DNA of 64,000 nucleotides from Lentimicrobiaceae bacterium. GTDB taxonomy: Bacteria; Bacteroidota; Bacteroidia; Bacteroidales; F082. The first letter of the stretch is position 1. Each line of letters opens with the position of its first letter. Both the position numbers and the translations under genes were made by a program. The notes beneath the pieces are model-generated. The model searched no databases. It saw only the letters and a list, made by a program, of their open reading frames with translations, and had not been told where the DNA came from. The stretch is from contig SUWT01000007.1 of the NCBI GenBank assembly GCA_015061335.1, forward strand, positions 897 through 64,896. Direction: 5' to 3'. Positions 13,897 to 34,466 of this stretch are shown here, one piece after another.

Positions 13897-13904
13897 TATT
13901 TTTG
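13897..13904 (+). promoter_or_regulatory. -7 box TATTTTTG
   Basis: Exact TAnnTTTG match 21 nt upstream of the ATG at 13926. This argues against the TTG start at 13902. Confidence 0.45.
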
Positions 13905-13925
13905 CAGAACAAAATTATAAAAAAA

Positions 13926-15920
13926 ATGAAGAGAAATTTTACTATTACAGTATTGTTTTTATGTTTAGTGTTGGGTTTGGGACTCAATGCTTTCTCGCAA
14001 CAACAAGAACTTCCTGAATGGAGATTGAAGAAATATCTTTCAGAGGAGGAGATGAGAATGCCAGTCAGAAACATTAATTTCACAGAGACGGATCCTCCGA
14101 CGGCTGAGGTTCGTTTTCCGGGCGAATATGAGCCAATGCAGGCTGCAATGGTTGTATATCCTCTTGGTATCCCTGTGGAGCTTGTAAGAGAGATGGCGGA
14201 AGATTGTAAAGTCATTGTTGTTGCAAGATCATCAGACCAATCGTATGCTGAGAATGAGTTTCAATCAGCAAATGTTAATATGGACAACATAGAATTCCTG
14301 AATGCTAATACAGATTCATACTGGATTCGTGACTTTGGTCCTTGGTATATCTTTAATGGCAAAGAGCCTGCTATTGTTGATAACAGATACAATCGTCCTC
14401 GTCCTAATGACGATGAAATTCCTGGACATTTTGCGGAATACTGGGATATTGAGATGTTCGGGATGAATGTTGTTCATACAGGAGGTAACATGATGGAAGA
14501 TGGTCGCTGTCATGGGGTTTCCGATGATATTGTTATTACAGAGAGTGCGTCATACGGCATCACTGAGGATGAGGTTTATGAAAGGATGAAAGCTTATCTT
14601 GGCATTGATCCTTATCATGTGACAATCGACCCACAAGGTGATTATATTGCTCACGTTGACTGCTGGGGAAAATATCTCGCTCCTGATAAGATCTTGTTGG
14701 CACGTGTTCCGGAGTCAAATCCTCGTTACCCTTACTATGAGGAGGTAGCAGAATATTTCGCCACCACAAATTGTTGCTGGGGTTATCCATATAAGATATA
14801 TCGTGTTGATATACCAGGTGGAAGTGTTATCTCTCCTTATACTAATAGTTTGATTCTCAATAATAAAGTTCTTATGCCATTGGGGTCTAACTCGGCATAT
14901 AATGAAGCTGCTCTCAATATATATCGTGAGGCGATGCCTGGTTATGAAGTTATAGGCGTAGAAAATAATAGTTATTGGGATGGCTGGTTAAATACCGACG
15001 CTCTCCACTGCCGTGTTCGTGGTGTGATGGATTTCAATATGTTCTATGTAGATCATCGTGATGTTGTTTTCGGTGAACAGGAATGGCAAGATTCTGTCGC
15101 CATCACATCTAAGTTCATCGCTTATAGCGGCGCTGAACTGAAACAAGATTCTCTCCTCGTATATTATAGCATCGACGGTGGGGAATATCAGACAGCAAAG
15201 ATGACTTCAACAGGAAATCCGGACGAATATGTAGGTTATATCAAAGGTTATAACGGAGGATCGAAAATAGATTATTATGTGTTCGGTGCTGATGAGTCAA
15301 ACCGCAGATACCAACAACCGGTCTTTGGTGAACTCGACCCTCATACATTTACAATGGGAGAACACGTAGAAACATTGTTGACTTTAAATCCTGAAGAGAT
15401 TGTTTTCGATGAGACTTATGAACATAATGTTCCACAAATCCTGACAATAACAAATAATACAGCTGCCGATGTCGTCATAAACGATATTATGATAAAAGAT
15501 CAAGATAGTTATAATATAGAATTTGATTTTTCATTGCCATATACAATTGCCGTTGGTGAATCGGCAGAAGTTGATGTTTATGCTACGTATGTATTCAAAT
15601 GGATCGGTTTCGAAACAGAAATCGTCATCACTTCATCAGTAGGCGAACAGGTAGTTACTGTTATGTATGACGGCACAGTCGGTCTCGAAGAAAACAGTTT
15701 CGCATCGACTGAGATTTATCCGAATCCTATGAACGATGTCCTTTATATCGAGTCTGAAAATATTATAAGTGTAACAATCTTCAATGCTGTAGGACAACAA
15801 GTATTATTCGTCGAAAACAGAAATGAAATTGATGTGACCGAATTAAATGACGGACTTTATTTCGTAAGACTTGTTGACGACAAAGGTAATACATTAACAA
15901 AGAAAATCATTAAGCAATAA
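13926..15920 (+). CDS. secreted agmatine deiminase / Porphyromonas-type peptidylarginine deiminase family protein with T9SS C-terminal sorting domain
   Basis: Signal peptide MKRNFTITVLFLCLVLGLGLNAFSQ. Guanidino-modifying motifs PGEYEP, WIRDFGPW, HTGGNMMEDG, AHVDCW, TDALHCR (Cys nucleophile). Ig-like middle region. Type-A CTD IYPNPMNDVLYIE...GLYFVRLVDDKGNTLTKKIIKQ. Confidence 0.8.
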   Translation: MKRNFTITVLFLCLVLGLGLNAFSQQQELPEWRLKKYLSEEEMRMPVRNINFTETDPPTAEVRFPGEYEPMQAAMVVYPLGIPVELVREMAEDCKVIVVARSSDQSYAENEFQSANVNMDNIEFLNANTDSYWIRDFGPWYIFNGKEPAIVDNRYNRPRPNDDEIPGHFAEYWDIEMFGMNVVHTGGNMMEDGRCHGVSDDIVITESASYGITEDEVYERMKAYLGIDPYHVTIDPQGDYIAHVDCWGKYLAPDKILLARVPESNPRYPYYEEVAEYFATTNCCWGYPYKIYRVDIPGGSVISPYTNSLILNNKVLMPLGSNSAYNEAALNIYREAMPGYEVIGVENNSYWDGWLNTDALHCRVRGVMDFNMFYVDHRDVVFGEQEWQDSVAITSKFIAYSGAELKQDSLLVYYSIDGGEYQTAKMTSTGNPDEYVGYIKGYNGGSKIDYYVFGADESNRRYQQPVFGELDPHTFTMGEHVETLLTLNPEEIVFDETYEHNVPQILTITNNTAADVVINDIMIKDQDSYNIEFDFSLPYTIAVGESAEVDVYATYVFKWIGFETEIVITSSVGEQVVTVMYDGTVGLEENSFASTEIYPNPMNDVLYIESENIISVTIFNAVGQQVLFVENRNEIDVTELNDGLYFVRLVDDKGNTLTKKIIKQ

Positions 15921-15929
15921 TTATTATTT

Positions 15930-15957
15930 GGGACGTTTTTATACGTCCCTTTTTTTT
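15930..15957 (+). terminator. rho-independent terminator GGGACG-loop-CGTCCC + T8
   Basis: Perfect 6-bp GC-rich stem with an 8-nt loop, then TTTTTTTT. It starts 10 nt after the stop at 15920. Confidence 0.75.
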
Positions 15958-15963
15958 ACCATT

Positions 15964-17031
15964 ATGAGACGCTTCATACAATTATCATCCATTTTAATAA
16001 TCTTAATATTTTTAGGAGGGTGTACATCAAATGCACTATATGATGATGTGTCCGACATCTCGGAAAAGAATATCGGCATACTTCATTCTAATGTTGAGAA
16101 GGATGTTATGAACGTTCTCTTTCCTCATGCCTCGGTTATGGAATATGACAAAGTGATTTCACTATTTCTTGATATGGAATCTAATCGTTGTGATGTTGCG
16201 GTGATGACGCAAGAAATCGCCGATATGGTTGTAAAACGTAATCAGGATTATGTGTTGCTTGGTTCTGTTGCAACGCCAGATGGCGAGGATTTTTTTGTTG
16301 TCGTACCACGTGAAAATATTGCGGTTGGCGAGGATATTTCAATCAAAGAGATATCTTTTTTCGAGAAGATAAAAGGCAGCCTTAGTCGTAACTTATTTAA
16401 TGAAAAGGCGATGCATCTGATATGGGGCGGTTTCAAGACTACCGTCATCATATTCTTCTTCGGCGCCATTTTAGCTATAATATTAGGTGCGTTCTTGGCG
16501 TATCTATCTATAAGTCATAAATGTCTTTGGCTATATAAACCTCTCAGTTGGTTTGTGATGACGATTCACGACATTCCGTCTGTCGTGCTGATGATGTTTT
16601 TCTTCTATGTCGTTTTTGCCGGAGCGATGAACGGAATATTCGTCTCAATAATAGCTCTCGGCATATATGCCTCTGGAGCGTTATATAAAGTATTTAAGAT
16701 ACATATCACGCAAGTCGGGAAAGGACAACTTGAGGCTGGACGTATGTTAGGGCTCAGCTCCTATAAATGTTATCGTTACATCATACTGCCTCAGGCTGTC
16801 AAGACGATGTTGCCTTTGGTGGGAGGCGAACTTAAGCTTTTGTTGAGAGCAACTTCCTACGCAGGTTACATAGCTCAGAAAGATCTGGTAAAAGCCGTCG
16901 ATGCCATAAGAGGATTCACCTACGATGCTTTCGTGCCTTTGTTGTTAGTATCGCTACTATATCTCCTCTTGTCATGGCTTATAGTGAAATCATTAGATTA
17001 TATATCAAAAAAAGTATTTAACAATGATTGA
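15964..17031 (+). CDS. ABC permease (polar amino acid HisM/GlnP-type TMD) with N-terminal lipoprotein signal and partial SBP_bac_3-like domain
   Basis: Starts MRRFIQLSSILIILIFLGGCTSN. About 130 aa are periplasmic-binding-like (CDVAVMTQEIADMVVKRNQDYVLLG). The TMD has an EAA-type loop GQLEAGRMLGLSSYKCYRYIILPQA. The TTG start at 15928 lies inside the terminator. Confidence 0.7.
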   Translation: MRRFIQLSSILIILIFLGGCTSNALYDDVSDISEKNIGILHSNVEKDVMNVLFPHASVMEYDKVISLFLDMESNRCDVAVMTQEIADMVVKRNQDYVLLGSVATPDGEDFFVVVPRENIAVGEDISIKEISFFEKIKGSLSRNLFNEKAMHLIWGGFKTTVIIFFFGAILAIILGAFLAYLSISHKCLWLYKPLSWFVMTIHDIPSVVLMMFFFYVVFAGAMNGIFVSIIALGIYASGALYKVFKIHITQVGKGQLEAGRMLGLSSYKCYRYIILPQAVKTMLPLVGGELKLLLRATSYAGYIAQKDLVKAVDAIRGFTYDAFVPLLLVSLLYLLLSWLIVKSLDYISKKVFNND

Positions 17032-18094
17032 ATTCTTACATATCAGTAAATCGTTTCAGGGTAAGGAGATTCTTCATGATGTGTCGTTGTCTGTCGAGGA
17101 AGGTCAGACGGTATGTATCATAGGAGCGTCAGGATGTGGTAAGACGACATTGTTACGTTGCATCGCAGGATTGGAAAGCAATCATCGCAGTCAGCTGTCG
17201 GCTGTCAGCTGTCAGCTAAAAGCTAAAATCGGTATGGTGTTCCAGAAATTCAATCTTTTTGAGAATATGAATGTATTGGATAATCTCACTTTTGCTCCTA
17301 TCCATGTTTTGAATATGAAGAAGGAAGATGCCGAACGTCTTGCGATGGAACATCTTAAGATGGTCGGCATGTCGGAGAGAGTCGCATATTATCCGAATCA
17401 GCTTTCGTCAGGACAGCAGCAGCGTGTCGCCATAGCACGATGTTTAGTGATGAAACCGGAGCTTCTGCTTCTCGACGAGCCGCTGTCATCTCTCGACCCT
17501 ATATCTCGCAGCGAGGTGATGGATGTCTTGCGTATAATAAAGAAAGATATAACAATGATAATGGTGTCGCACGACCTCGATGCCGTTGCTGAACTTGCAG
17601 ATCGCGTCATCTTTGTCAATAACGGCTCGATATGTGAAGAGGGAAAACCTGAGCAAATCTTGTCGTTACCTTTAAAAGAAGAGACACGGCATTTTATCAA
17701 CAGCCGGAAAAACCTTTTCTATACGATAAAGTCACATGACTTCGACCGTCCTGAACTTAATGCGCGTATCGAACACTATTGTAATAGATTCGGATTAGGC
17801 GGACAAGCGCATAGATTCGTACAGTTGGCAGTAGAAGAATCGCTTAATATCATACCTTTAGATAATAAAGTGGAACTCGTTTTGTCGAAGAAAAATGACG
17901 AGGTGAGAATGTCGTTGGATCTTACTTTTGATGATACAGGACATGATTGTCTTAATGAAGAAAATGTGTCGGAAGAGAATTTCTTAAGCCTCAATATCCT
18001 TCAAGGCTTATGCGATATAATAGAAGAGAAAGTAGAAAAAGATATGCGTCATATTCATCTTGAATTGAATCAAGAGAGACTGTTGTTGAGGTGA
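17024..18094 (+). CDS. ABC transporter ATP-binding protein with shortened beta-subdomain and C-terminal RsbW/GHKL-like (degenerate) domain
   Basis: Walker A GASGCGKT, Q-loop IGMVFQKF, signature LSSGQQQRV, Walker B LLLLDEP, H-loop VSHD. Only 17 aa lie between ..GLE and IGMVFQ, and they are encoded by a heptamer array. The C-terminal ~130 aa align to the kinase domain of the 19061 gene. Confidence 0.75.
   Translation: MIEFLHISKSFQGKEILHDVSLSVEEGQTVCIIGASGCGKTTLLRCIAGLESNHRSQLSAVSCQLKAKIGMVFQKFNLFENMNVLDNLTFAPIHVLNMKKEDAERLAMEHLKMVGMSERVAYYPNQLSSGQQQRVAIARCLVMKPELLLLDEPLSSLDPISRSEVMDVLRIIKKDITMIMVSHDLDAVAELADRVIFVNNGSICEEGKPEQILSLPLKEETRHFINSRKNLFYTIKSHDFDRPELNARIEHYCNRFGLGGQAHRFVQLAVEESLNIIPLDNKVELVLSKKNDEVRMSLDLTFDDTGHDCLNEENVSEENFLSLNILQGLCDIIEEKVEKDMRHIHLELNQERLLLR
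17192..17226 (+). repeat. intragenic heptamer array CAGCTGT CGGCTGT CAGCTGT CAGCTAA AAGCTAA
   Basis: Read directly from the sequence. It encodes ..QLSAVSCQLKAK.. inside the ATPase gene. The same unit family occurs at 22615-22677, 34395-34428 and 39438-39465. Confidence 0.9.
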
Positions 18095-18126
18095 TTGATA
18101 GTTGACAATTGACAATTAACAATTAA
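18093..18126 (+). repeat. heptamer array (GACAATT/AACAATT family) filling the intra-operon spacer
   Basis: TGATTGATAGTT GACAATT GACAATT AACAATT. It starts inside the TGA stop (18092-18094) and ends 2 nt before the ATG at 18129. Confidence 0.85.
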
Positions 18127-18128
18127 GG

Positions 18129-19064
18129 ATGAGAAAGATATTGTTTTTATTATTGATGTTTTTTATGATGATGGATGCTGTTGCTCAGCGGATAGTCTTC
18201 ACTCCGCAGTGGCTGCCTCAGAGTCAGTTTGCCGGTTATTACGTCGCGCAGGAAAAAGGATTCTATGAAGAGGTCGGTCTCGATGTCGTGATAGAACATG
18301 TGTCGGCTTCTGACTTTGCCATCAATCGTCTCAAGGAAGGAAAATGCGACGCCATCACCATGACGTTGTTCGACGCGATTGTCAATATCGACGCTGGCTT
18401 GGATATAGTCAATGTTCTACAGACGGCTATGCATACAGGTCTCGTTATCGTCCCTCGTAATAATGATATAAAGTCATTGGAGGATCTGCGTGATAAGCGT
18501 GTCGGGATTTGGCGAACTCATTACAACTATCTTTCTGAGATTATGGATAAAGACCATAACCTAAATATCGAATGGATACCTTTTGTACAAAGTATAAATC
18601 TTTATATCTCAGGTGCTGTCGATGCAACGATGGCGATGATTTATAACGAAGCATATCAGATTTATGCCTCAGGTTTTGAAGATGTTGAGTTTATCTCGCT
18701 TGCCGATTGCGGCTATGATTTCCCTGAAGAAGGAATATATTTTACAAAAGAATTCTATGAACAATATCCCGACAAGGCAAAAGCCTTTGCTCAGGCGTCG
18801 CGTCGTGGCTGGGAGTGGGCGCATCAGCATCCTGAAGAGACTCTCGACATCGTGATGAAAGTTGTTGAAGATAATAATATGCCCGCTGGTCGCCAGCATC
18901 AGGAATGGATGTTGAGAGAAGTCCTTAAACTTCAACTTGATAAAGATTTAAACATGCCAGCCTTCGAACTCAAGGAAGAGAAGATTAAACAGATTAATGA
19001 GTTGCTGTTAGAGAATAATCGTATCAAAAAAGCAGTGACAAAATCAAAGATTATAGGAGAATGA
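18129..19064 (+). CDS. NMT1/THI5-like (SsuA-type) periplasmic substrate-binding protein
   Basis: 311 aa with signal peptide MRKILFLLLMFFMMMDAVAQ. N-terminal motif FTPQWLPQSQFAGYYVAQEKGFYEEVGLDV is typical of this SBP class. Confidence 0.7.
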   Translation: MRKILFLLLMFFMMMDAVAQRIVFTPQWLPQSQFAGYYVAQEKGFYEEVGLDVVIEHVSASDFAINRLKEGKCDAITMTLFDAIVNIDAGLDIVNVLQTAMHTGLVIVPRNNDIKSLEDLRDKRVGIWRTHYNYLSEIMDKDHNLNIEWIPFVQSINLYISGAVDATMAMIYNEAYQIYASGFEDVEFISLADCGYDFPEEGIYFTKEFYEQYPDKAKAFAQASRRGWEWAHQHPEETLDIVMKVVEDNNMPAGRQHQEWMLREVLKLQLDKDLNMPAFELKEEKIKQINELLLENNRIKKAVTKSKIIGE

Positions 19065-21409
19065 CGATGAAACGTAAAAGAAATATATTGAATTCTTTGT
19101 CAACACGACTCAGTCTCTTCATATTGGCAGTCACAACATCATTGTTGATAACCATCGTTATTCTTAACTACAACTCATCGCGTAATCTCGTGAAAGAAGA
19201 ATCTATAGAGCGTGCGCAGTCGGTGCTCGACAATACTATCTTGCGAATCGACAATGTTCTGAACTCTGTAGAGACGGCGGTACATAATATCTCATGGACT
19301 GTGAAGGAGAATGTCGATAATCCGGAGTATATGTATGATGTGACAAAACGACTTATAGAAAGTGACGACTTTATTAGCGGTAGCGCCGTTGCTTTTGAAC
19401 CTGATTTCTATCCCGATAAAGGTCATTTCTATTCGCCTTATTCCTATCGTGACGGAGAAAAAATCGTAAGTAAACAACTTGGAAATCAGGATTACGACTA
19501 TCATTATATGGATTGGTATCAGATTCCAAAGCTGTTAGACAAGCCATATTGGAGCGAACCTTATTTCGATCAAGGTGGAGCCGATGTCATTATGACTACA
19601 TATTCATATCCTTTATATGACAGTGACGGAAAATTGTTCGCCATCATCACTGCCGACATCTCTTTGGAATGGTTCGCAGAACAGGTTAACTCTATCAAGA
19701 CTTATCCTAACTCGTTCAACCTGATGATTGGTCGTGGTGGAACGTATCTCGTTCATAAAGATACAAAAGCAATTCTGAATAAGACTATGTTTGAGGCAGC
19801 ATTGGCAAATGATGATGAAGTGATTTTCGAGACTGCTCACGAGATGGTAGAAGGTAAACGAGGAATGGCATATTTTGATTATGGTGAGAAATCGTATCTC
19901 TTCTATGCTCCTATTCAAGCGACGGGATGGTCGGTGGCAGTGACATGTTTGCAACAAGATATTTTCGCTAAAGTTGATGATATGAGAGCTCATGTCATGA
20001 TGGTGGCGATACCGGGATTGGTTTTGTTGGTGGTGTTATGTTATCTTCTTATTCGCTATATGATGAATCCTCTCAATGAGTTTGCTCTGTCGGCAATGGA
20101 GATAGCGAAAGGTAATTTCAAGGCTGAACTGCCAAAACGTAAGAAAAACTACGAGATGAGAACCCTGCATAACTCGTTCAGTTTTATGCAGAAGTCATTG
20201 CAGAATTATATTGACGAACTGCAACTCACGACGGTGAATAAAGAACGTATCGAGAGTGAGTTGCGTATCGCTCGCGACATACAGATGGGGATGGTTCCTA
20301 AGATTTTCCCTCCTTTCCCAAAACGCGATGACGTGGATTTATACGGTATGCTTATCCCCGCCAAAGAAGTAGGAGGCGACTTATACGACTTTTTTATCGA
20401 AGATGATAAGTTGCATTTCATTATCGGTGACGTCTCCGGAAAAGGTGTGCCCGCTTCATTGGTCATGGCTGTGACATGTCGTCTGTTCAGAACTGTAGCA
20501 TCGAGTGTTCACTCTCCTTCGCAGATAATAAATATATTGAACAACGCGATAGCAGAGTCTAACGAATCGAATATGTTCTGTACGGCTTTTGTCGGCGTAT
20601 TGGATCTGAGAACAGGACATCTGCAATATTGTAACGCTGGACATAATCCTCCTGTCGTCATAACATCTGAAGGAAAGACTTCTTTCTTGTCGGTGAAACC
20701 TAATCTCGCCATGGGACTTTGGGAAGGCTTTGAATATCAAGAACAAGAATGTGTGATAGAGAAAGGAACAAATATCTTCCTTTATACCGATGGCGTGAAC
20801 GAGGCGGAAAATATCACGAAAGAATTATATGGCGACGACAGATTGCTGCAATTCTTGTCGAGACATTTTAAGAGCAAACCTCGTAATATAGTTGAAGAAT
20901 TATATGACGACATTAAACTTCATTCGAAAGATGCTGAACAAAATGACGACATTACGATGCTGTGTTTTACCGTGCTTGAGGATCTGCCTAAATCAGATTC
21001 TTGTAAAAGACTCGTGATGCGTAACGATATAGCCGACATTGCTCTTATGGCGGAATTCATAGAAACATTATGCGATGAGAACCAACTTCCGATGGATGTT
21101 TGTTTCAACCTCAATCTCGCTCTGGAAGAAGCCGTATCTAACGTGATGAAATATGCCTATCCCGAAAATGAAACGCATGAGATTATGCTTACTGCAGACA
21201 TAAAAGACAATAGCATCATATTCGAGTTGAGCGATACGGGCAAGCCTTTTGATCCTACAGAAGTGGAAGATGCCGACGTGACTCTTTCTGCCGAAGAACG
21301 TCCTATCGGCGGATTAGGAATATTCCTCATAAGAAAGATAATGAAATCTGTGGCATATAAAAGAGATGGGAATAGGAATGTATTGACTATGATATTTACT
21401 TTAAACTGA
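19061..21409 (+). CDS. membrane sensor: dCache - HAMP - PP2C (SpoIIE/RsbU-type) phosphatase - RsbW-like anti-sigma kinase domain
   Basis: 782 aa with two TM segments flanking a Cache-like domain (YMDWYQIP..PYWSEPYFDQGG..YSYPLYDSDGKLFAIITADISLEWF). PP2C motifs GGDLYDF, GDVSGKGVPASL, AGHNPP, LYTDGVNEA, DDITMLC. GHKL motifs LEEAVSNVMKYA, SDTGKPFDP, GGLGIFLIRK. ATGA overlap with the upstream gene. Confidence 0.8.
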   Translation: MTMKRKRNILNSLSTRLSLFILAVTTSLLITIVILNYNSSRNLVKEESIERAQSVLDNTILRIDNVLNSVETAVHNISWTVKENVDNPEYMYDVTKRLIESDDFISGSAVAFEPDFYPDKGHFYSPYSYRDGEKIVSKQLGNQDYDYHYMDWYQIPKLLDKPYWSEPYFDQGGADVIMTTYSYPLYDSDGKLFAIITADISLEWFAEQVNSIKTYPNSFNLMIGRGGTYLVHKDTKAILNKTMFEAALANDDEVIFETAHEMVEGKRGMAYFDYGEKSYLFYAPIQATGWSVAVTCLQQDIFAKVDDMRAHVMMVAIPGLVLLVVLCYLLIRYMMNPLNEFALSAMEIAKGNFKAELPKRKKNYEMRTLHNSFSFMQKSLQNYIDELQLTTVNKERIESELRIARDIQMGMVPKIFPPFPKRDDVDLYGMLIPAKEVGGDLYDFFIEDDKLHFIIGDVSGKGVPASLVMAVTCRLFRTVASSVHSPSQIINILNNAIAESNESNMFCTAFVGVLDLRTGHLQYCNAGHNPPVVITSEGKTSFLSVKPNLAMGLWEGFEYQEQECVIEKGTNIFLYTDGVNEAENITKELYGDDRLLQFLSRHFKSKPRNIVEELYDDIKLHSKDAEQNDDITMLCFTVLEDLPKSDSCKRLVMRNDIADIALMAEFIETLCDENQLPMDVCFNLNLALEEAVSNVMKYAYPENETHEIMLTADIKDNSIIFELSDTGKPFDPTEVEDADVTLSAEERPIGGLGIFLIRKIMKSVAYKRDGNRNVLTMIFTLN

Positions 21410-21417
21410 CAAAAACT

Positions 21418-21717
21418 ATGGAATTAAAGATTCGTCAAGAAAATGCAGCGACTGTTGTTGAGATTATAGGTCGCTTAGATACTATCACAGCCCCTGACTT
21501 GGATGCAGCTGTGAAACCGCTTATCGTCGATGGAGTGGAGCTTATCTTCGATTGCGAGGGATTAGAATATATCAGCAGTTCGGGATTGAGAGTCGTCATC
21601 GCGACGCACAAACAGATGATGACATGCTCCGGAAAACTTATAATACGTCATCTCAATAGAGAGGTGAAATCGGTTTTTGACCTCACAGGATTTTCAAATA
21701 TCCTGAATATCTGTTAA
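21418..21717 (+). CDS. STAS-domain anti-sigma-factor antagonist (RsbV/SpoIIAA-like)
   Basis: 99 aa. Contains the conserved phosphorylatable serine context LEYISSSGLRVVI. Confidence 0.85.
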   Translation: MELKIRQENAATVVEIIGRLDTITAPDLDAAVKPLIVDGVELIFDCEGLEYISSSGLRVVIATHKQMMTCSGKLIIRHLNREVKSVFDLTGFSNILNIC

Positions 21718-21883
21718 CGGGAACGGGGATTGCGGGGACGGGATTTAGTAGAGACACACGGACGTGTATCTTAAATTGAAAATTCAGGTAGAGACGCGTC
21801 AATGACACCTTAAAAAAATAAACAAGATGTCATTGACACGTCTCAACTTATTCCCCGTTCCCCGCTCCCCGTTCCCCGCTCCC
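21716..21883 (+). repeat. composite intergenic element, copy 2: inverted CCCCGTT-type arrays bracketing a truncated and a full GTAGAGACG hairpin core
   Basis: Left array (AACGGGG-type) at 21716-21746. Mini core GTAGAGACACACG-GA-CGTGTATCT at 21748-21771. Full core arms GAGACGCGTCAATGACA (21791-21807) and TGTCATTGACACGTCTC (21828-21844). Right array TTCCCCG TTCCCCG CTCCCCG TTCCCCG CTCCC at 21851-21883. Confidence 0.9.
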
Positions 21884-21954
21884 AATGGTTATGAATTTGG
21901 CGGTGTAAAAATAAAAAAATGGCGGTGTAAATAAATTCGTATGACAAAAAGTAT

Positions 21955-22761: not shown

Positions 22762-24483
22762 ATGTTAAGCGAACAAGAACAAATAAGAAGAAACTCCTTA
22801 AACGAGTTATACAAATTAGGTATCAATCCTTATCCACAGGCAGCTTTTGAAGTCAATGTCAACACTGCTCAGATTGCTGAAGAATTTGATGACAACGACT
22901 TGACAAAATTCGAGAACGTAAGCATAGGCGGTCGTATCATGAGCCGTCGTATCATGGGCGCAGCTTCGTTCTGCGAACTTCAAGATGCTCACGGTCGCGT
23001 ACAGATCTATATCAAACGTGACGAGATCTGTCCTGGCGAGGATAAGACTTTATATAACGTGGCTTTCAAACGTCTCTTAGACATCGGCGACTTCATCGGC
23101 GTTAAAGGTTTCGTCTTCCGCACACAAGCCGGCGAGGTGTCAATCCACGTAAAAGAATTGACAGTGCTCAGCAAGTCATTGCGTCCGCTTCCAATAGTGA
23201 AAGAGAAAGACGGCGTTGTCTATGACGCTTTCACAGATCCTGAACAACGCTATCGTATGCGTTACGTCGATTTGGTGGTTAACGAAAACGTGAAGAACAT
23301 CTTCATCGCTCGTACCAAAATCATCAACTCGATGCGTAACTTCTTCAACGAAAACGGATACTTAGAAGTAGAGACTCCGATATTACAATCTATCCCTGGC
23401 GGCGCTACAGCACGTCCTTTCATCACTCACCACAACGCTCTCGACATCCCGATGTATATGCGTATCGCTAACGAGCTTTACCTTAAACGTCTCATCGTAG
23501 GTGGTTTCGACGGAGTTTATGAGTTTTCACGTAACTTCCGTAACGAAGGTATGGACCGCACTCATAACCCAGAGTTCACATGTATGGAAATTTACGTCGC
23601 TTATAAAGACTACATCTGGATGATGGACTTCACAGAAAGAATGATAGAACGCGTCGTGACAGAAGTGTTCGGCACTGATACAGTGAAAGTCGGCGACAAT
23701 GAAATATGCTTCAAACGTCCTTTCAAACGTATCTCCATGATCGACTCTATCAAGGAAAAGACAGGCGTTGACATCACTGGCATGGACGAAGCTCAACTTC
23801 GTGAAGTATGTAAAAACCTCGATATTGAAATCGACGACACTATGGGTAAAGGCAAGTTGATTGACGAGATCTTCGGAGCAAAATGCGAAGGCACTTATAT
23901 CCAACCAACTTTCATCACCGACTATCCTGTCGAGATGTCGCCATTATGTAAACGTCACCGCGAGAATCCGGAACTCACAGAACGTTTCGAGTTGATGGTC
24001 AACGGCAAAGAACTCGCTAACGCATATACAGAGTTGAACGACCCTATCGACCAACGTGCTCGTTTCGAGGAACAGATGAAACTCTCGGAACGTGGCGACA
24101 ACGAAGCTATGTTCATCGACCAAGACTTCTTACGTGCTATGGAATATGGTATGCCTCCAACATCAGGTATGGGTATCGGCATCGACCGTCTCGTGATGTT
24201 GCTCACTGGTCAGCTCGCAATACAGGAAGTTCTTTTCTTCCCGACAATGCGTCCTGAAAAAGTCAAGAAAATAGCTACAGAACAAGACTTCATGGCAATC
24301 GGCGTCCCAGAGGTGTGGGCTGGCGTTTTGGTAAAAGCAGGTTATACTTCCATCGATATGATGAAGTCGGAGAAACCTGCTGCTCTCCGTGAGAAACTGA
24401 ACGGACTTCGTAAGAAAAACAAAATGGATGTCCCGGCTCTTCAGTTGGAGGAAGTGACACAATGGATTGAAGGTAACGAATAA
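22762..24483 (+). CDS. lysS: lysine--tRNA ligase (class II) with C-terminal extension
   Basis: 573 aa. OB-fold N-domain and class II motifs ([25 protein letters not shown]). About 70 extra aa at the C-terminus. Confidence 0.9.
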
Positions 24484-24556: not shown

Positions 24557-24581
24557 CATGATAAAAAATAATAATCACAAT

Positions 24582-27500
24582 ATGAAGAAGATTTTACTGA
24601 CATTAGGTCTGATGTTAATGCTGGTCTTTTCACTCTCTGCACAGATGGTCGAGAAGACTTTCTTTTTTAACAACCCGCAATTTGAACAATATCAAAATTA
24701 TGAACAAATCACTTTGGATTGTTCCGTAGGTACACTCTCATTAGAATCTGTACAAGGAGCTGAAGTGGGAAATCCTAACCTTCCTTGGTATTCAGTGTCA
24801 TTGCTACTACCGCAAAATACGGAAGCACAGGAAGTCGAATTTGAATTCTCAGATTTCATAGAAATAGAAGGATCACATCTTTTGTATCCTTATCAGGCAC
24901 CGCGCCCGCTTTCTGTGACAAAGGATATTCCTTTTGCAAAAAATGAAAACGTCTATGCTTCAGAAGATTTATATCCTACAAAATATTCTTCTGATGTCGA
25001 GACACAGTATCTTAACGGTTATTCTATCGCATTATCAGGATTTACTCCTGTGAGATATGTGCCTTCTACAGGAAAATTGTCGTACGCACAGAATGTTACA
25101 GTAAGAATTTCATATACAACATCAAGAGTTGACAAAAGTAAGATGTTGAACACAGCTCCAGAGATAAAATCACGTGTTGAGCGTTTGGCGCAAAATCCTG
25201 AGTTATTAGTGTTATATGCTGATAATCAAAAACAAAGATCTATAAGTGGATATGAGTTGTTGGTTATAACACCGGAAGAATGGGTCTCTCATTTTGATGA
25301 ATATAAATCTTTTTATGATGCAAAAGGTTTAAGAACTAGAGTAAGGTCTCTCGAAGAGATTTATTCTTCTACAGATGGTCGTGATGATCAAGAGAAGATC
25401 CGTACGTATATTGCGCAAGAATATGAAAATGAAGGTGTTATGATGGTCCTCCTTGGCGGTGACTCTAATGTGGTGCCTTATCGTTCTTTGTATTGTTATG
25501 TGTCTTCAGAATATGTTGATAATCTCCCTGCTGATATGTATTACGTATGTTTAGATGGTTCTTGGGATGATGATAATGATGGATTATGGGGTGAAGTAGG
25601 TGAGGATGACTTATTGCCGGAATTAGCTATCGCTCGTATGCCTTTTAATAATGAGGATCAGTTTAATAATATGATGCACAAGACATTAGAATATCAAGCT
25701 AATCCTGTCTTGGGTGAATTTAACGATATCGTTTTCGGAGGAGAACACCTAGGTGATGGTTATTATGGCAGCAACGACTTAGAACTTCTTATCGGAGAAC
25801 ATGATGATGATGGCTATACTACTATCGGTATCCCTGAGCATTATACCTTCCATCGCATCTATTCCGATGGTCCTTCCGGATGGAATGGAACTATCTTCAG
25901 GAACAAAATCAATGAGGTAGGAGGAGGTTATGTACATCACGTAGGTCATGCTAATACTGATTATGTGGCAGGTTGGTATGTAAACTCTACTAATGATAAT
26001 TCTTTCATACACCTGAATGGTGAAACGCATAACTATAACTTCTTCCATTCACATGGCTGTATTTGCGGCGACTTCACAAGCACATGTATTCTTGAAAGAT
26101 TGGTGAATATATCAACAGGTTTTGTAGCAGCGACAGGTAACTCACGTTATGGATGGTATATCCCATGGGGCGATGGACCAGCTCGTCACCTTCATCGTGA
26201 GTTCGTTGATTCATATTACCACGATAGACTTCCTTATATCGGTACAGCCTTTGTGGAAATGAAAATAATGACAGCACCTTTGGTTAATATGGCTTGGGGA
26301 GAGAATGCTGCTCTCCGCTGGAACTTCTATTGTATCAATATTTTAGGTGATGTAGCTGTCAGTCCGTGGCTCGACGAACCTTTTATCCCTGAGATTGAAT
26401 ACGAAAAAGCTCTCGTCAATGGAACAACCTCAACAAATATAATTGTTAACAAAGAAGGTGAAGCTCAAAGTAATTTCCGTTGTAGTTTGTTCTATGGTGA
26501 TGATCTTATCGCTTTCGCAATGACAGATGAAAATGGACTCGCTTCTCTAGAACTTGCTGAACCTCTTGATATAGTGGATACTTTGCAGTTGATAATAACA
26601 GGTCCTAACGCATGGTGTCAGAATTATGATGTTATTGCTATGGCAGAAAATTCAGCATACGTTTATGCTGATGACATTCAGATAGATGATGCCCAGTGTA
26701 ATGGTAATGAACAACTGGATTATGATGAGACTGTTAGCCTTAATATCAATTTCTATAATCCAGGCACAATAGCTGCTAATAACGTAAGTGCAACACTTAC
26801 AACACTTTCTCCAGAATATGTAGAGATGATTGATACTGAAGCTAATGTGGGTAATGTCTCAGCTAACTCTAGTATCTCTGTAAACGAAGCTTTTAGCTTC
26901 AAAATTTCTGATAACATACAAGATCAGGAATATGTTTATTTCATTCTTGAATGCAATGACGGTACTAATACCTGGGCACAAGAACTATTATTCAAAGTGT
27001 TAGCTCCTGTTTTTGATGTTCACGAGTTAATTTATGATGATAGCATGGGTAATAATAATGGTTTTGTTGATCCTGGTGAAACAATACAAATTCATTTCTC
27101 AGGTAAAAATGTTGGACATAGCCTATGCCATGATCTATTAGTGCATGCTAGTTCTGCTAATCCTTATATCACTTTTGTAGAGAATGATATAAATATTGAG
27201 GAACTTGACGTAAACGAAGAGTTTACGGCAACAATGCTGCTGCAAATAGATGATAACACTCCTGATGGAGAATTCTTTACCGTCAATGTTAATATGACCT
27301 CAGGATCTTATCAGATAGAGAAAAACCTGATGTTTACTGTCGGTACTGTTAAAGAGGACTTTGAAGTCGGTGATTTCTCTCATCTTAATTGGCAGTTTGC
27401 TTATGATAAACCTTGGTTAGTTACAGATAATCAGGTATTTAATGGAAATTATGCCGCTGAGTCAGGACATATCGGCGATGATGAGATAAGTTCTCTTATT

Positions 27501-28019
27501 GTTGAAATTAGCACTACTACTGATGGCGTCATATCATATTACTTTAAGACATCAACGGAAGAGAACAGAGACTATCTGGTGTTTTATATTGATGGTCAGA
27601 TGCAAGATCGCTGGAGTGGAGAAAACGATTGGCAACAAATTTCTTATGACATCCCTTCAGGACTCCATACTCTGGAATGGCGTTACGATAAAAATCAAAG
27701 AGATTCAGAAGGTGAGGATCGTTGCTGGATAGATGACATCGTATTCCCTGGTAACTGTATGATAATGGATATTAATTCAGTAACAGAGAATAAGAACTTT
27801 ATCATTTATCCTAATCCTGCAAATAATTTCGTTGTTGTAGAAGGTGATGATATTCAGGAAGTTGAGCTTTATAATATCATGGGTGTAAAACTTTATTCCC
27901 AAGAAGTCGAAAACTCAAAAATAGTTATGGATCTAGATGATGTTTCTAATGGAATGTATCTTATTCGTATCTTAGATTCAGATGCTAAGGTCTATACAAA
28001 AAAAATAGTTAAGAAATAA
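24582..28019 (+). CDS. C25 (gingipain-like) cysteine peptidase with T9SS C-terminal sorting domain
   Basis: Signal peptide MKKILLTLGLMLMLVFSLSAQ. C25 catalytic-domain pattern (YELLVITPEEW..VLLGGDSNVVPYR..HHVGHAN..FFHSHGCICGDF). Several Ig/lectin-like domains. CTD IIYPNPANNFVVVEG...GMYLIRILDSDAKVYTKKIVKK. Confidence 0.75.
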   Translation: MKKILLTLGLMLMLVFSLSAQMVEKTFFFNNPQFEQYQNYEQITLDCSVGTLSLESVQGAEVGNPNLPWYSVSLLLPQNTEAQEVEFEFSDFIEIEGSHLLYPYQAPRPLSVTKDIPFAKNENVYASEDLYPTKYSSDVETQYLNGYSIALSGFTPVRYVPSTGKLSYAQNVTVRISYTTSRVDKSKMLNTAPEIKSRVERLAQNPELLVLYADNQKQRSISGYELLVITPEEWVSHFDEYKSFYDAKGLRTRVRSLEEIYSSTDGRDDQEKIRTYIAQEYENEGVMMVLLGGDSNVVPYRSLYCYVSSEYVDNLPADMYYVCLDGSWDDDNDGLWGEVGEDDLLPELAIARMPFNNEDQFNNMMHKTLEYQANPVLGEFNDIVFGGEHLGDGYYGSNDLELLIGEHDDDGYTTIGIPEHYTFHRIYSDGPSGWNGTIFRNKINEVGGGYVHHVGHANTDYVAGWYVNSTNDNSFIHLNGETHNYNFFHSHGCICGDFTSTCILERLVNISTGFVAATGNSRYGWYIPWGDGPARHLHREFVDSYYHDRLPYIGTAFVEMKIMTAPLVNMAWGENAALRWNFYCINILGDVAVSPWLDEPFIPEIEYEKALVNGTTSTNIIVNKEGEAQSNFRCSLFYGDDLIAFAMTDENGLASLELAEPLDIVDTLQLIITGPNAWCQNYDVIAMAENSAYVYADDIQIDDAQCNGNEQLDYDETVSLNINFYNPGTIAANNVSATLTTLSPEYVEMIDTEANVGNVSANSSISVNEAFSFKISDNIQDQEYVYFILECNDGTNTWAQELLFKVLAPVFDVHELIYDDSMGNNNGFVDPGETIQIHFSGKNVGHSLCHDLLVHASSANPYITFVENDINIEELDVNEEFTATMLLQIDDNTPDGEFFTVNVNMTSGSYQIEKNLMFTVGTVKEDFEVGDFSHLNWQFAYDKPWLVTDNQVFNGNYAAESGHIGDDEISSLIVEISTTTDGVISYYFKTSTEENRDYLVFYIDGQMQDRWSGENDWQQISYDIPSGLHTLEWRYDKNQRDSEGEDRCWIDDIVFPGNCMIMDINSVTENKNFIIYPNPANNFVVVEGDDIQEVELYNIMGVKLYSQEVENSKIVMDLDDVSNGMYLIRILDSDAKVYTKKIVKK

Positions 28020-34394: not shown

Positions 34395-34466
34395 TTAGCT
34401 GTCAGCTATTAGCTGTCAGTACTTAGTTCCACGTTCCCGTTTCCCGTCCCCCGTTCCCCGTTCCCC
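34395..34466. repeat. adjacent heptamer arrays (TTAGCTG/TCAGCTA type, then TTCCCCG type)
   Basis: TTAGCTG TCAGCTA TTAGCTG TCAGTAC TTAGTTC, then TTCCACG TTCCCGT TTCCCGT CCCCCG TTCCCCG TTCCCC. It begins 4 nt after the TGA at 34389-34391. Confidence 0.85.

Follow-up and report, generated by a model that had tools for sequence, protein, structure and literature searches.

A Bacteroidales operon that links an ABC importer with partner-switching proteins and carries a predicted RsbW-like domain on the transporter ATPase

Five genes and their domains

We analysed a stretch of 64,000 nucleotides from a Lentimicrobiaceae bacterium (GenBank assembly GCA_015061335.1, contig SUWT01000007.1, positions 897 to 64,896 of the forward strand; the whole stretch is called the window below). 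At positions 15964-21717 it contains an operon of five genes on the plus strand in which an ATP-binding cassette (ABC) importer is combined with the proteins of a partner-switching module. The genes code for an ABC permease (15964-17031, 355 amino acids), an ABC ATPase (17024-18094, 356 residues), an NMT1 binding protein (18129-19064, 311 amino acids), a sensor (19061-21409, 782 amino acids) and a STAS protein (21418-21717, 99 amino acids). They are tightly packed. The junctions are, in gene order, an 8-nt overlap, a 34-nt gap, a 4-nt ATGA overlap of the NMT1 stop with the sensor start, and an 8-nt gap. An earlier, sequence-only reading had described these five packed genes and had named domains in all five products. 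The open reading frames (ORFs) and the junctions were all found in place. Pfam and NCBIfam confirmed the named domains except for two: the tail of the ATPase is assigned by its fold, and the half solute-binding domain of the permease by weak matches.

Residues 171-350 of the permease are a BPD_transp_1 domain (Pfam), according to NCBIfam of the EhuD/HisM/GlnP type, i.e. of the polar amino-acid class. The ATPase begins with a nucleotide-binding domain (NBD; residues 1-228, 17024-17707, plus strand; ABC_tran E = 5e-35, GlnQ E = 1.5e-66) in which Walker A (GASGCGKTT), the signature (LSSGQQQR), Walker B (LLLLDEP) and the H-loop (VSHD) can all be recognised. The domain is similar to GlnQ/ArtP, with ATPases of ArtP/ArtJ systems as its best PDB matches. 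Intact NBD motifs and a permease with a HisM/GlnP-type BPD_transp_1 domain point to a polar amino-acid (PAAT-type) importer.

The permease starts with a lipoprotein signal (lipobox LGGC, Cys20). The following region, up to about residue 145, matched weakly and solely to family-3 amino-acid binding proteins, each time to their second half. TIGR01096 was covered at model positions 121-218 of 250, and in a PDB search 10 of 10 matches were family-3 solute-binding proteins (SBPs; best 4i62, E = 2.3e-4). Lipobox and second-half matches are in keeping with the lipoprotein half-SBP that had been proposed to be fused to the permease. The half-SBP is absent from many relatives, and the permease of a distant relative (L025) carries a complete fused SBP_bac_3. 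The half-SBP of the window aligns to the N-terminal part of this fused binding domain and looks like a relic of such a complete fusion. In L025 (732-2177) the segment that comes first resembles the second half of a binding protein and is followed by a first-lobe segment (Pfam positions 3-91), and of these two the window retains the first only. The segment order suggests that the fused binding domain of L025 is either permuted or one-and-a-half. As a cognate family-3 SBP for the importer the window offers the half-domain on the permease; the adjacent protein of the NMT1/SsuA family is an unusual partner for this type of permease.

The NMT1 protein is secreted and belongs to the SsuA family (NMT1 E = 1.6e-34). 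The sensor combines four domains, all encoded on the plus strand. A periplasmic, MCP-like dCache/PDC domain (residues 43-295, 19187-19945) and a HAMP domain (residues 329-381, 20045-20203) were identified by Pfam and NCBIfam. They are followed by a PP2C/SpoIIE phosphatase (residues 448-638, 20402-20974; SpoIIE E = 3e-54, model positions 2-191 of 192) with the motifs GGDLYDF, GDVSGKG, TDGVNE and NDDITML in the translation. At the C-terminus is an RsbW-type Ser kinase, HATPase_c_2 (residues 655-779, 21023-21397; E = 1e-25, with RsbW/SpoIIAB matches in NCBIfam), in which N, G1 and G2 boxes are intact. The STAS protein consists of a single domain (STAS E = 3e-15; TIGR00377, anti-sigma antagonist, E = 7e-21). 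Phosphorylation is predicted at Ser54 (codon 21577-21579), the second of the three Ser in ISSSGL. This Ser was invariant in 21 sequences spanning two groups of STAS paralogs, and from an alignment we take it to be equivalent to SpoIIAA Ser58. A STAS protein with a conserved Ser, a HATPase_c_2 kinase with all boxes and a SpoIIE-type PP2C together constitute a partner-switching set.

Partner switching is the textbook route to freeing sigma factors; a few non-transcriptional outputs have been found recently. None of the 43 other window ORFs of at least 100 amino acids matched Pfam models for sigma factors, STAS, HATPase_c_2 or SpoIIE (E<=1e-5), which agrees with the earlier statement that the window holds no sigma factor gene. 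Nor was a sigma factor, as an alternative partner of the kinase, conserved beside the operon in 20+ relatives. Bacteroidales are not known for having group-3 sigma factors like SigB or SigF.

The C-terminal domain of the ATPase

The NBD is followed by a tail of 128 residues (residues 229-356, 17708-18094, plus strand). Its sequence had no match in Pfam (E<=10), in NCBIfam (E<=1) or in a PDB profile search (E<=10). A word-indexed search retrieved 34 relatives from metagenome fragments (48-66% identity), and their alignment shows a strongly conserved domain. By an exhaustive profile search the family comprises 54 representatives in 1.84 billion proteins. Those members which have a recognisable Pfam domain are GlnQ-like ATPases (ABC_tran in 13 of 33 scanned, several of about 350-370 amino acids); the remaining scanned members are short fragments. 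In a few members, SBP_bac_3 and a permease are part of the same protein. In the wider family, Pfam HATPase_c_2 was reached by 2 of 33.

The fold of the tail was predicted with AlphaFold (AF2) from the family alignment (predicted local distance difference test 82.8, predicted template modelling score 0.76). The model has the topology b-a-a-b-b-a-b-b as in the Bergerat fold. In a Foldseek comparison with the PDB the best 20 matches were all RsbW-type kinases, next came CA domains of histidine kinases, and no ABC protein was matched. The matches included UsfX (8ih8/8jzt, E = 1.6e-5), RsbW (6m36/6m37), SpoIIAB (1tid/1thn/1til/1th8/1l0o) and SiaB (6kko). Most entries among the best 20 also hold the STAS partner. 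Target-normalised template modelling (TM) scores were 0.56-0.73, for two SiaB chains 0.44-0.47. The AF2 model and these best 20 matches speak for the RsbW-like (GHKL/Bergerat) tail which had been suspected from the sequence.

Next, the ATP-binding motifs of tails and kinases were compared. In 16 of 16 cognate kinase domains lEEAv.N, D.G..FDPT and R.iGGLGiF are conserved. In the tails (n = 21) only the N-box vEE.lN is kept. G1 lacks conservation (e.g. LPFSETMY) and G2 is replaced by LSLS or LSFS in 21 of 21; the window tail itself has kept LAVEESLN as N-box and has LSLN in the G2 position. Hence the tail combines a Bergerat-type fold with an incomplete set of ATP-binding motifs (N-box Asn, G1 DxGxG, G2 GxxGxG), and because conserved G1 and G2 boxes are missing it is predicted to be a pseudokinase. 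The best-conserved part of the family is the first helix, PELNARIEQYCNRFGLG. We propose that the tail is an uncatalogued RsbW-like pseudokinase domain, as predicted by the structural model, and that it deserves a family entry of its own.

Linkage of the tail with partner-switching genes

The tail alignment was used to scan species-representative genomes, which yielded 17 loci; more distant tail proteins were added via their contigs. The nine domains of the window were then mapped onto the relative loci. Except for one dubious 'Clostridia' fragment, the 17 scanned loci are from metagenome-assembled genomes (MAGs) of gut or rumen Bacteroidales. One tail fragment of about 50% identity in an 'uncultured Clostridia' bin (L022, 4176-4664) was discarded. 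It lacks an upstream NBD, has a poly-G end and probably arose by faulty assembly or binning.

Of 26 distinct loci with the tail, about 22 also have genes for STAS and/or an RsbW-type kinase (window, L002, L003, L006-L017, L019-L021, L023, L024, L025/26 and L029). These loci span families of Bacteroidales and further metagenome lineages. Seven gene orders were distinguished. The order of the window, permease-ATPase-NMT1-sensor(kinase)-STAS, is shared by L006-9, L013 and L015 (order A), and L010-12 and L024 have in addition a second STAS gene upstream of the permease (B). In L017, L019 and L021 the kinase is separate from the sensor, sometimes with an inserted RelA_SpoT gene (C). L014, and partly L016, have STAS2-permease-ATPase-kinase-STAS without NMT1 and without a PP2C sensor (D), and in L020 and L023 STAS is between ATPase and NMT1 (E). 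The most divergent tails occur in kinase-STAS-[SBP_bac_3::permease]-ATPase (F; L025/26, tail E = 1e-7) and in kinase-STAS-...-APH-permease-ATPase (G; L029, tail E = 1e-5). The minimal loci L014, L016 and L025/26 are reduced to transporter, kinase and STAS. Even tails at the edge of detection (P0057, E = 1e-7; P0068, E = 1e-5) show the linkage. Flanking genes are shared with the window only in L006-L009 and are unrelated elsewhere. This indicated that the operon itself is the conserved unit, and the expectation that its neighbourhood would be conserved in relatives was borne out by the association in about 22 of 26 loci.

The second STAS paralog is located directly upstream of the permease in six loci (L003:2-277, L010:6057-6359, L011:2-358, L012:1625-1969, L014:6209-6499, L024:878-1171). 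It is about 41-45% identical to the downstream STAS and has kept the Ser in ICS*SGL. Thus, in these loci two STAS proteins face two RsbW-like domains.

The NMT1 protein and the Cache-PP2C sensor were either both present or both absent in every locus, with NMT1 always directly upstream of the sensor. Both are absent from the minimal loci L014, L016, L025 and L029. Because NMT1 tracks the sensor and not the transporter, a role as co-sensor of the Cache phosphatase is more probable than one as the binding protein of the importer; the latter assignment was set aside on account of this co-occurrence.

Several other features of the relative loci were noted. A RelA_SpoT-domain gene is inside or beside the operon in L019 (8518-9390), L021 (8656-9528), L023 (11-886) and L029 (1156-2241, minus strand). 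It is small and alarmone-synthetase-like (Pfam E = 2e-13, weak YjbM match) and is not found in the window. It could be an accessory output or input. Downstream of the tail-ATPase, L001 (6802-8574) and L005 (817-2580) have a gene for a CitMHS/TrkA_C (SLC13-like) transporter, and upstream of it L001 has GATase, M20 peptidase and GCV_T genes; these neighbours hint at a context of amino-acid or organic-acid metabolism. In L002 (1350-1400) and L004, which are from two samples, the ATPase gene is shifted by 1 nt at an identical place directly before the H-loop (EVM|LRKLKK). In L003, from a third sample and with the same tail protein, and in L001 (5694-6765) it is broken at other points. The frameshifted genes could be pseudogenes, assembly errors or cases of recoding.

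A reciprocal search with the STAS protein gave 114 clusters, of which four were looked up. One of them, P0181 (53% identity), directly follows a gene which is cut by the contig start and is assumed to be the C-terminus of a sensor; ABC genes are out of view. L036 was uninformative since its contig begins inside the sensor gene. Three distant relatives (<=43% identity) are each away from any tail-bearing ABC ATPase: one is beside a CHASE4 histidine kinase and a PrsW protease, one is alone near a peptidase gene and one is beside a MATE exporter. In the latter locus (L032:5411-11807; the same in L033) the MatE exporter of 584 amino acids has a C-terminal HATPase_c_2 domain (residues 477-572, E = 1.6e-6) with N and G1 boxes kept and a degenerate G2 box. 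The MatE gene is followed by genes for a phosphopantetheinyl transferase, STAS, a stand-alone RsbW-type kinase, an acyltransferase and a SpoIIE phosphatase. A large nonribosomal peptide synthetase (NRPS) gene is directly upstream of the cluster. To judge from its domains, this is a second, unrelated class of transporter with a fused RsbW-like domain next to a partner-switching set.

In the window, a terminator-like hairpin with a T-run precedes the operon on the plus strand (15930-15959, hairpin 15930-15949; GGGACG-loop-CGTCCC, then TTTTTTTT). It ends the upstream gene, which codes for a PAD_porph protein sorted by the type IX secretion system (T9SS), and marks the 5' boundary of the operon. 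It favours the ATG at 15964 as the permease start over the upstream TTG start of the ORF list. The 34 nt that separate the ATPase gene from the NMT1 gene (18095-18128, plus strand) contain the short tandem heptamer TTGACAA TTGACAA TTAACAA, which may be an internal regulatory site. Just 3' of the STAS gene are nested inverted repeats (21719-21884; arms 21719-21755/21840-21876 and 21788-21811/21824-21847), built of the heptads TCCCCGT/TCCCCGC (GGGAACG/GGGAGCG). The same family of 11-mers recurs in the intergenic region 34428-34465 (9 matches versus 0.25 expected). The repeats may be an intergenic element like the repetitive extragenic palindromes, possibly doubling as operon terminator.

The gene content of the window is that of Bacteroidota (GldB, three T9SS sorting domains, a C25 peptidase, a PAD_porph protein). 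The operon is flanked by two T9SS-sorted secreted proteins, a homolog of the Porphyromonas-type peptidyl-arginine/agmatine deiminase (13902-15920) and a gingipain-like C25 peptidase (24558-28019). Between these two, a lysyl-tRNA synthetase (22762-24483) has a C-terminal DUF4332 extension. A reading of the operon as a defence system was dropped; PADLOC returned generic ABC/AAA ATPase matches to the NBD only and none for the other four proteins.

A transporter as proposed output of partner switching

From the domain set, the fold of the tail, the recurring linkage, the MATE parallel and the lack of another target in the window we derive a model in which the output of the partner-switching module is the ABC importer of the same operon and not a sigma factor. 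We give this model an even chance. Its foundations are directly supported: the domain content, the tail fold with its loss of motifs, the intact motifs of kinase and phosphatase, the invariant Ser and the gene linkage. The analysis supports the hypothesis of the sequence-only reading that the phosphorylation state of STAS gates or reads out the transporter.

The model would operate as follows. The dCache domain of the sensor would read a periplasmic ligand, probably helped by the NMT1 protein encoded upstream. HAMP would relay the signal and shift the balance between the PP2C domain and the sensor's own C-terminal RsbW-type Ser kinase, both of which would have Ser54 of STAS as a substrate. ABC ATPases act as dimers, and the regulatory domains of MalK, MetN and ModC sit beneath the NBD dimer. 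Similarly, the ATPase dimer would present two dead RsbW-like tails beneath its NBDs. Unphosphorylated STAS would dock on the pseudokinase tail as RsbV does on RsbW. The tail would be unable to phosphorylate STAS, and the complex would last until the real kinase phosphorylates free STAS. Docking would alter NBD closure or ATPase turnover and so turn transport on or off after translation. Such a switch would join binding of the RsbV-RsbW kind to regulation in the manner of MalK/EIIA-Glc or MlaF/MlaB. We infer that STAS contacts the tail, with either activation or inhibition as the effect, that NMT1 takes part in sensing and that there is a ligand.

With the MATE exporter, partner switching may be a general and so far unrecognised design for gating membrane transporters after translation. 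A fused dead RsbW-like domain would capture unphosphorylated STAS, and a periplasmic signal would switch transport within seconds. The design would have arisen at least twice, once on the ATPase of an ABC importer and once on the MATE exporter by the NRPS cluster (L032). We regard this generalisation as tentative, with a chance somewhat short of even.

Several observations weigh against the model of STAS docking on the importer. The assignment of the tail as RsbW-like rests mainly on the predicted fold because the sequence comparisons with the kinase domain are statistically weak. BLASTP of the tail against the sensor kinase domain gave solely a misaligned match (E = 0.027), and hhalign between small alignments of tails and kinase domains brought the N-boxes into register at E = 0.004 with a probability of 8.6%. 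The two domains are barely alignable, and the idea that the tail is a recent duplicate of the sensor kinase domain was dropped. Further, the ATP-lid region of the tail is shortened and the G2 box is lost. In SpoIIAB the ATP-lid region helps to contact SpoIIAA (structures 1TH8/1THN); docking on the tail may then not be RsbW-like. The negative result for sigma factors covers the 64-kb window, and a sigma factor or other target may sit elsewhere in the genome. Four tail-bearing loci (L018, L001, L005, L028) are without partner-switching genes in the DNA in view. Many loci are kin to each other, and the 22 are not independent events. Lastly, the ATPase genes of several relatives (L001-L004) are frameshifted.

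Part of this evidence could be read differently. Possibly the transporter is the output but the partner of the tail is the kinase domain and not STAS. A pseudo-RsbW tail would heterodimerise with, or be bound by, the active RsbW-like domain of the sensor or of the stand-alone kinase, and unphosphorylated STAS would pull the kinase off the tail, which would take the place of the sigma factor. The genomic linkage speaks for this equally well as for STAS docking. RsbW-type proteins are dimers, i.e. the fold of the tail belongs to a dimerising family, and the N-terminal helix of RsbW/SpoIIAB contributes to partner and dimer contacts; it is this first helix, PELNARIEQYCNRFGLG, that shows the strongest conservation in the tail. 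As part of the sensor, the kinase is in most loci anchored in the membrane, which brings it close to the transporter. However, the ABC dimer already places both tails to homodimerise, and where a locus has two STAS paralogs beside two RsbW-like domains, one STAS per domain is the simpler account. We know of no heterodimers of an RsbW-type kinase with a pseudokinase. Taken together, we consider a kinase on the tail unlikely.

Alternatively, information might flow in reverse, with the transporter as a co-sensor. The conformational or flux state of the importer would, via the tail, hold or free STAS, and free STAS or the kinase would then control another target, encoded elsewhere or nearby, e.g. 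the RelA_SpoT-domain protein of some loci. Transporters as co-sensors are a known principle (BceAB-BceS, DctA-DcuS). A transporter turned sensor is compatible with the degenerate half-SBP and with L014, in which the importer is without any binding protein, and the RelA_SpoT-domain gene does recur in L019, L021, L023 and L029. Yet these are only four loci, the window is not among them, and there is no conserved downstream target. In addition, the catalytic motifs of the NBD are intact and L025 has a complete fused SBP_bac_3, which makes real transport likely, and a dedicated periplasmic sensor is already present. A reverse flow is thus quite improbable.

Least probable is a conventional system in which the kinase holds a sigma factor or regulator encoded elsewhere, with the ABC genes as cargo or regulon and the tail as an unrelated regulatory or dimerisation domain: the whole genome extends beyond the view of a 64-kb window, the three distant STAS relatives (<=43% identity) are away from tail-bearing ATPases, and in Chlamydia the Rsb genes are scattered and their target is debated (PMC11619594), yet such a system has no sigma gene in the window and leaves unexplained the fusion of a STAS-binding-kinase fold to an ATPase, the travel of so rare a tail (54 representatives) with STAS and kinase genes through seven rearrangements, and the same fusion logic on a MATE exporter.

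The model of a transporter output is best viewed next to known systems. With RsbU-RsbV-RsbW and SpoIIE-SpoIIAA-SpoIIAB of Bacillus the operon shares the PP2C, an intact RsbW-type Ser kinase and a single-domain STAS protein with its Ser. It differs in that a sigma factor is absent from locus and window, in that a second, predicted dead RsbW-like domain is on an ABC ATPase, and in its input, a periplasmic dCache-HAMP unit next to which an NMT1 binding protein is encoded. The joining of kinase and phosphatase in a single polypeptide, as in the window sensor, is also seen in Vibrio fischeri SypE (partner SypA; PMC10120452). Rv1364c of M. tuberculosis is likewise a fusion of kinase and phosphatase, and its structure (3ke6) is among the fold matches of the tail.

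Partner-switching systems with outputs other than sigma factors are SiaABCD (diguanylate cyclase), HsbR/HsbA, BtrUVW and HenR-All4160 of Anabaena (glycosyltransferase) (bioRxiv 10.64898/2026.04.08.717354). There, as proposed here, an enzyme or machine responds directly, and not by way of transcription, to whether a STAS-type protein is phosphorylated, and SiaB-SiaC (6kko) is among the fold matches of the tail. In contrast to those systems, the output here would be a membrane transporter and the docking surface a pseudokinase fused to the target. Chlamydia has an RsbU with a periplasmic sensor domain, two RsbV paralogs and RsbW, without a clear SigB-type target (PMC11619594). A membrane PP2C with a periplasmic ligand domain and, in some loci, two STAS paralogs are common features. 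Chlamydia, however, lacks a transporter fusion, has its kinase as a protein of its own and carries the genes at scattered sites. Our literature search yielded no description of an RsbW-like domain or pseudokinase that is fused to an ABC or MATE transporter, or of one tied to its own set of STAS, kinase and phosphatase. If the contact between STAS and tail is real, the regulatory domains of ABC ATPases gain a new class in the tail, and partner switching gains a direct transporter output in the importer. As the hosts are gut and rumen Bacteroidales, the system may govern decisions on nutrient uptake in the microbiome.

Post-translational regulation of ABC transporters is known for only a handful of cases. 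MalK (inducer exclusion by EIIA-Glc), MetN (C2), ModC and OpuA (CBS) likewise possess an extra domain after the NBD which takes regulatory input, and MalK receives its input from a small protein that binds or not according to its own phosphorylation state. C-terminal regulatory domains of ABC ATPases have been cited as a class (PMC7367683). The tail differs from these in its fold, which is GHKL/RsbW-like and not TOBE, ACT-like or CBS, and in its proposed ligand, a STAS protein with a dedicated kinase and phosphatase.

The ABC ATPase MlaF is regulated by MlaB, a single-domain STAS protein that binds to it, and binding is weaker when MlaB has a phosphomimetic residue at the conserved Thr52 (PMC7367683). 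As proposed here, a STAS protein is bound to an ABC ATPase in MlaFEDB, with a conserved Ser/Thr at the interface. The operon is not of the MlaFB type: it has no MlaE/MCE genes, and its permease is BPD_transp_1 (Pfam). MlaB binds to the NBD itself, MlaF is without an RsbW-like domain, a kinase or phosphatase for MlaB is not known, and Mla is an MCE lipid transporter whereas the importer here is of the polar amino-acid type. Whether MlaB is ever phosphorylated has been stated as an open question (PMC7367683). If STAS does contact the tail, control of an ABC transporter by STAS phosphorylation, which is open for MlaB-MlaF, becomes directly testable here, with all parts in one operon.

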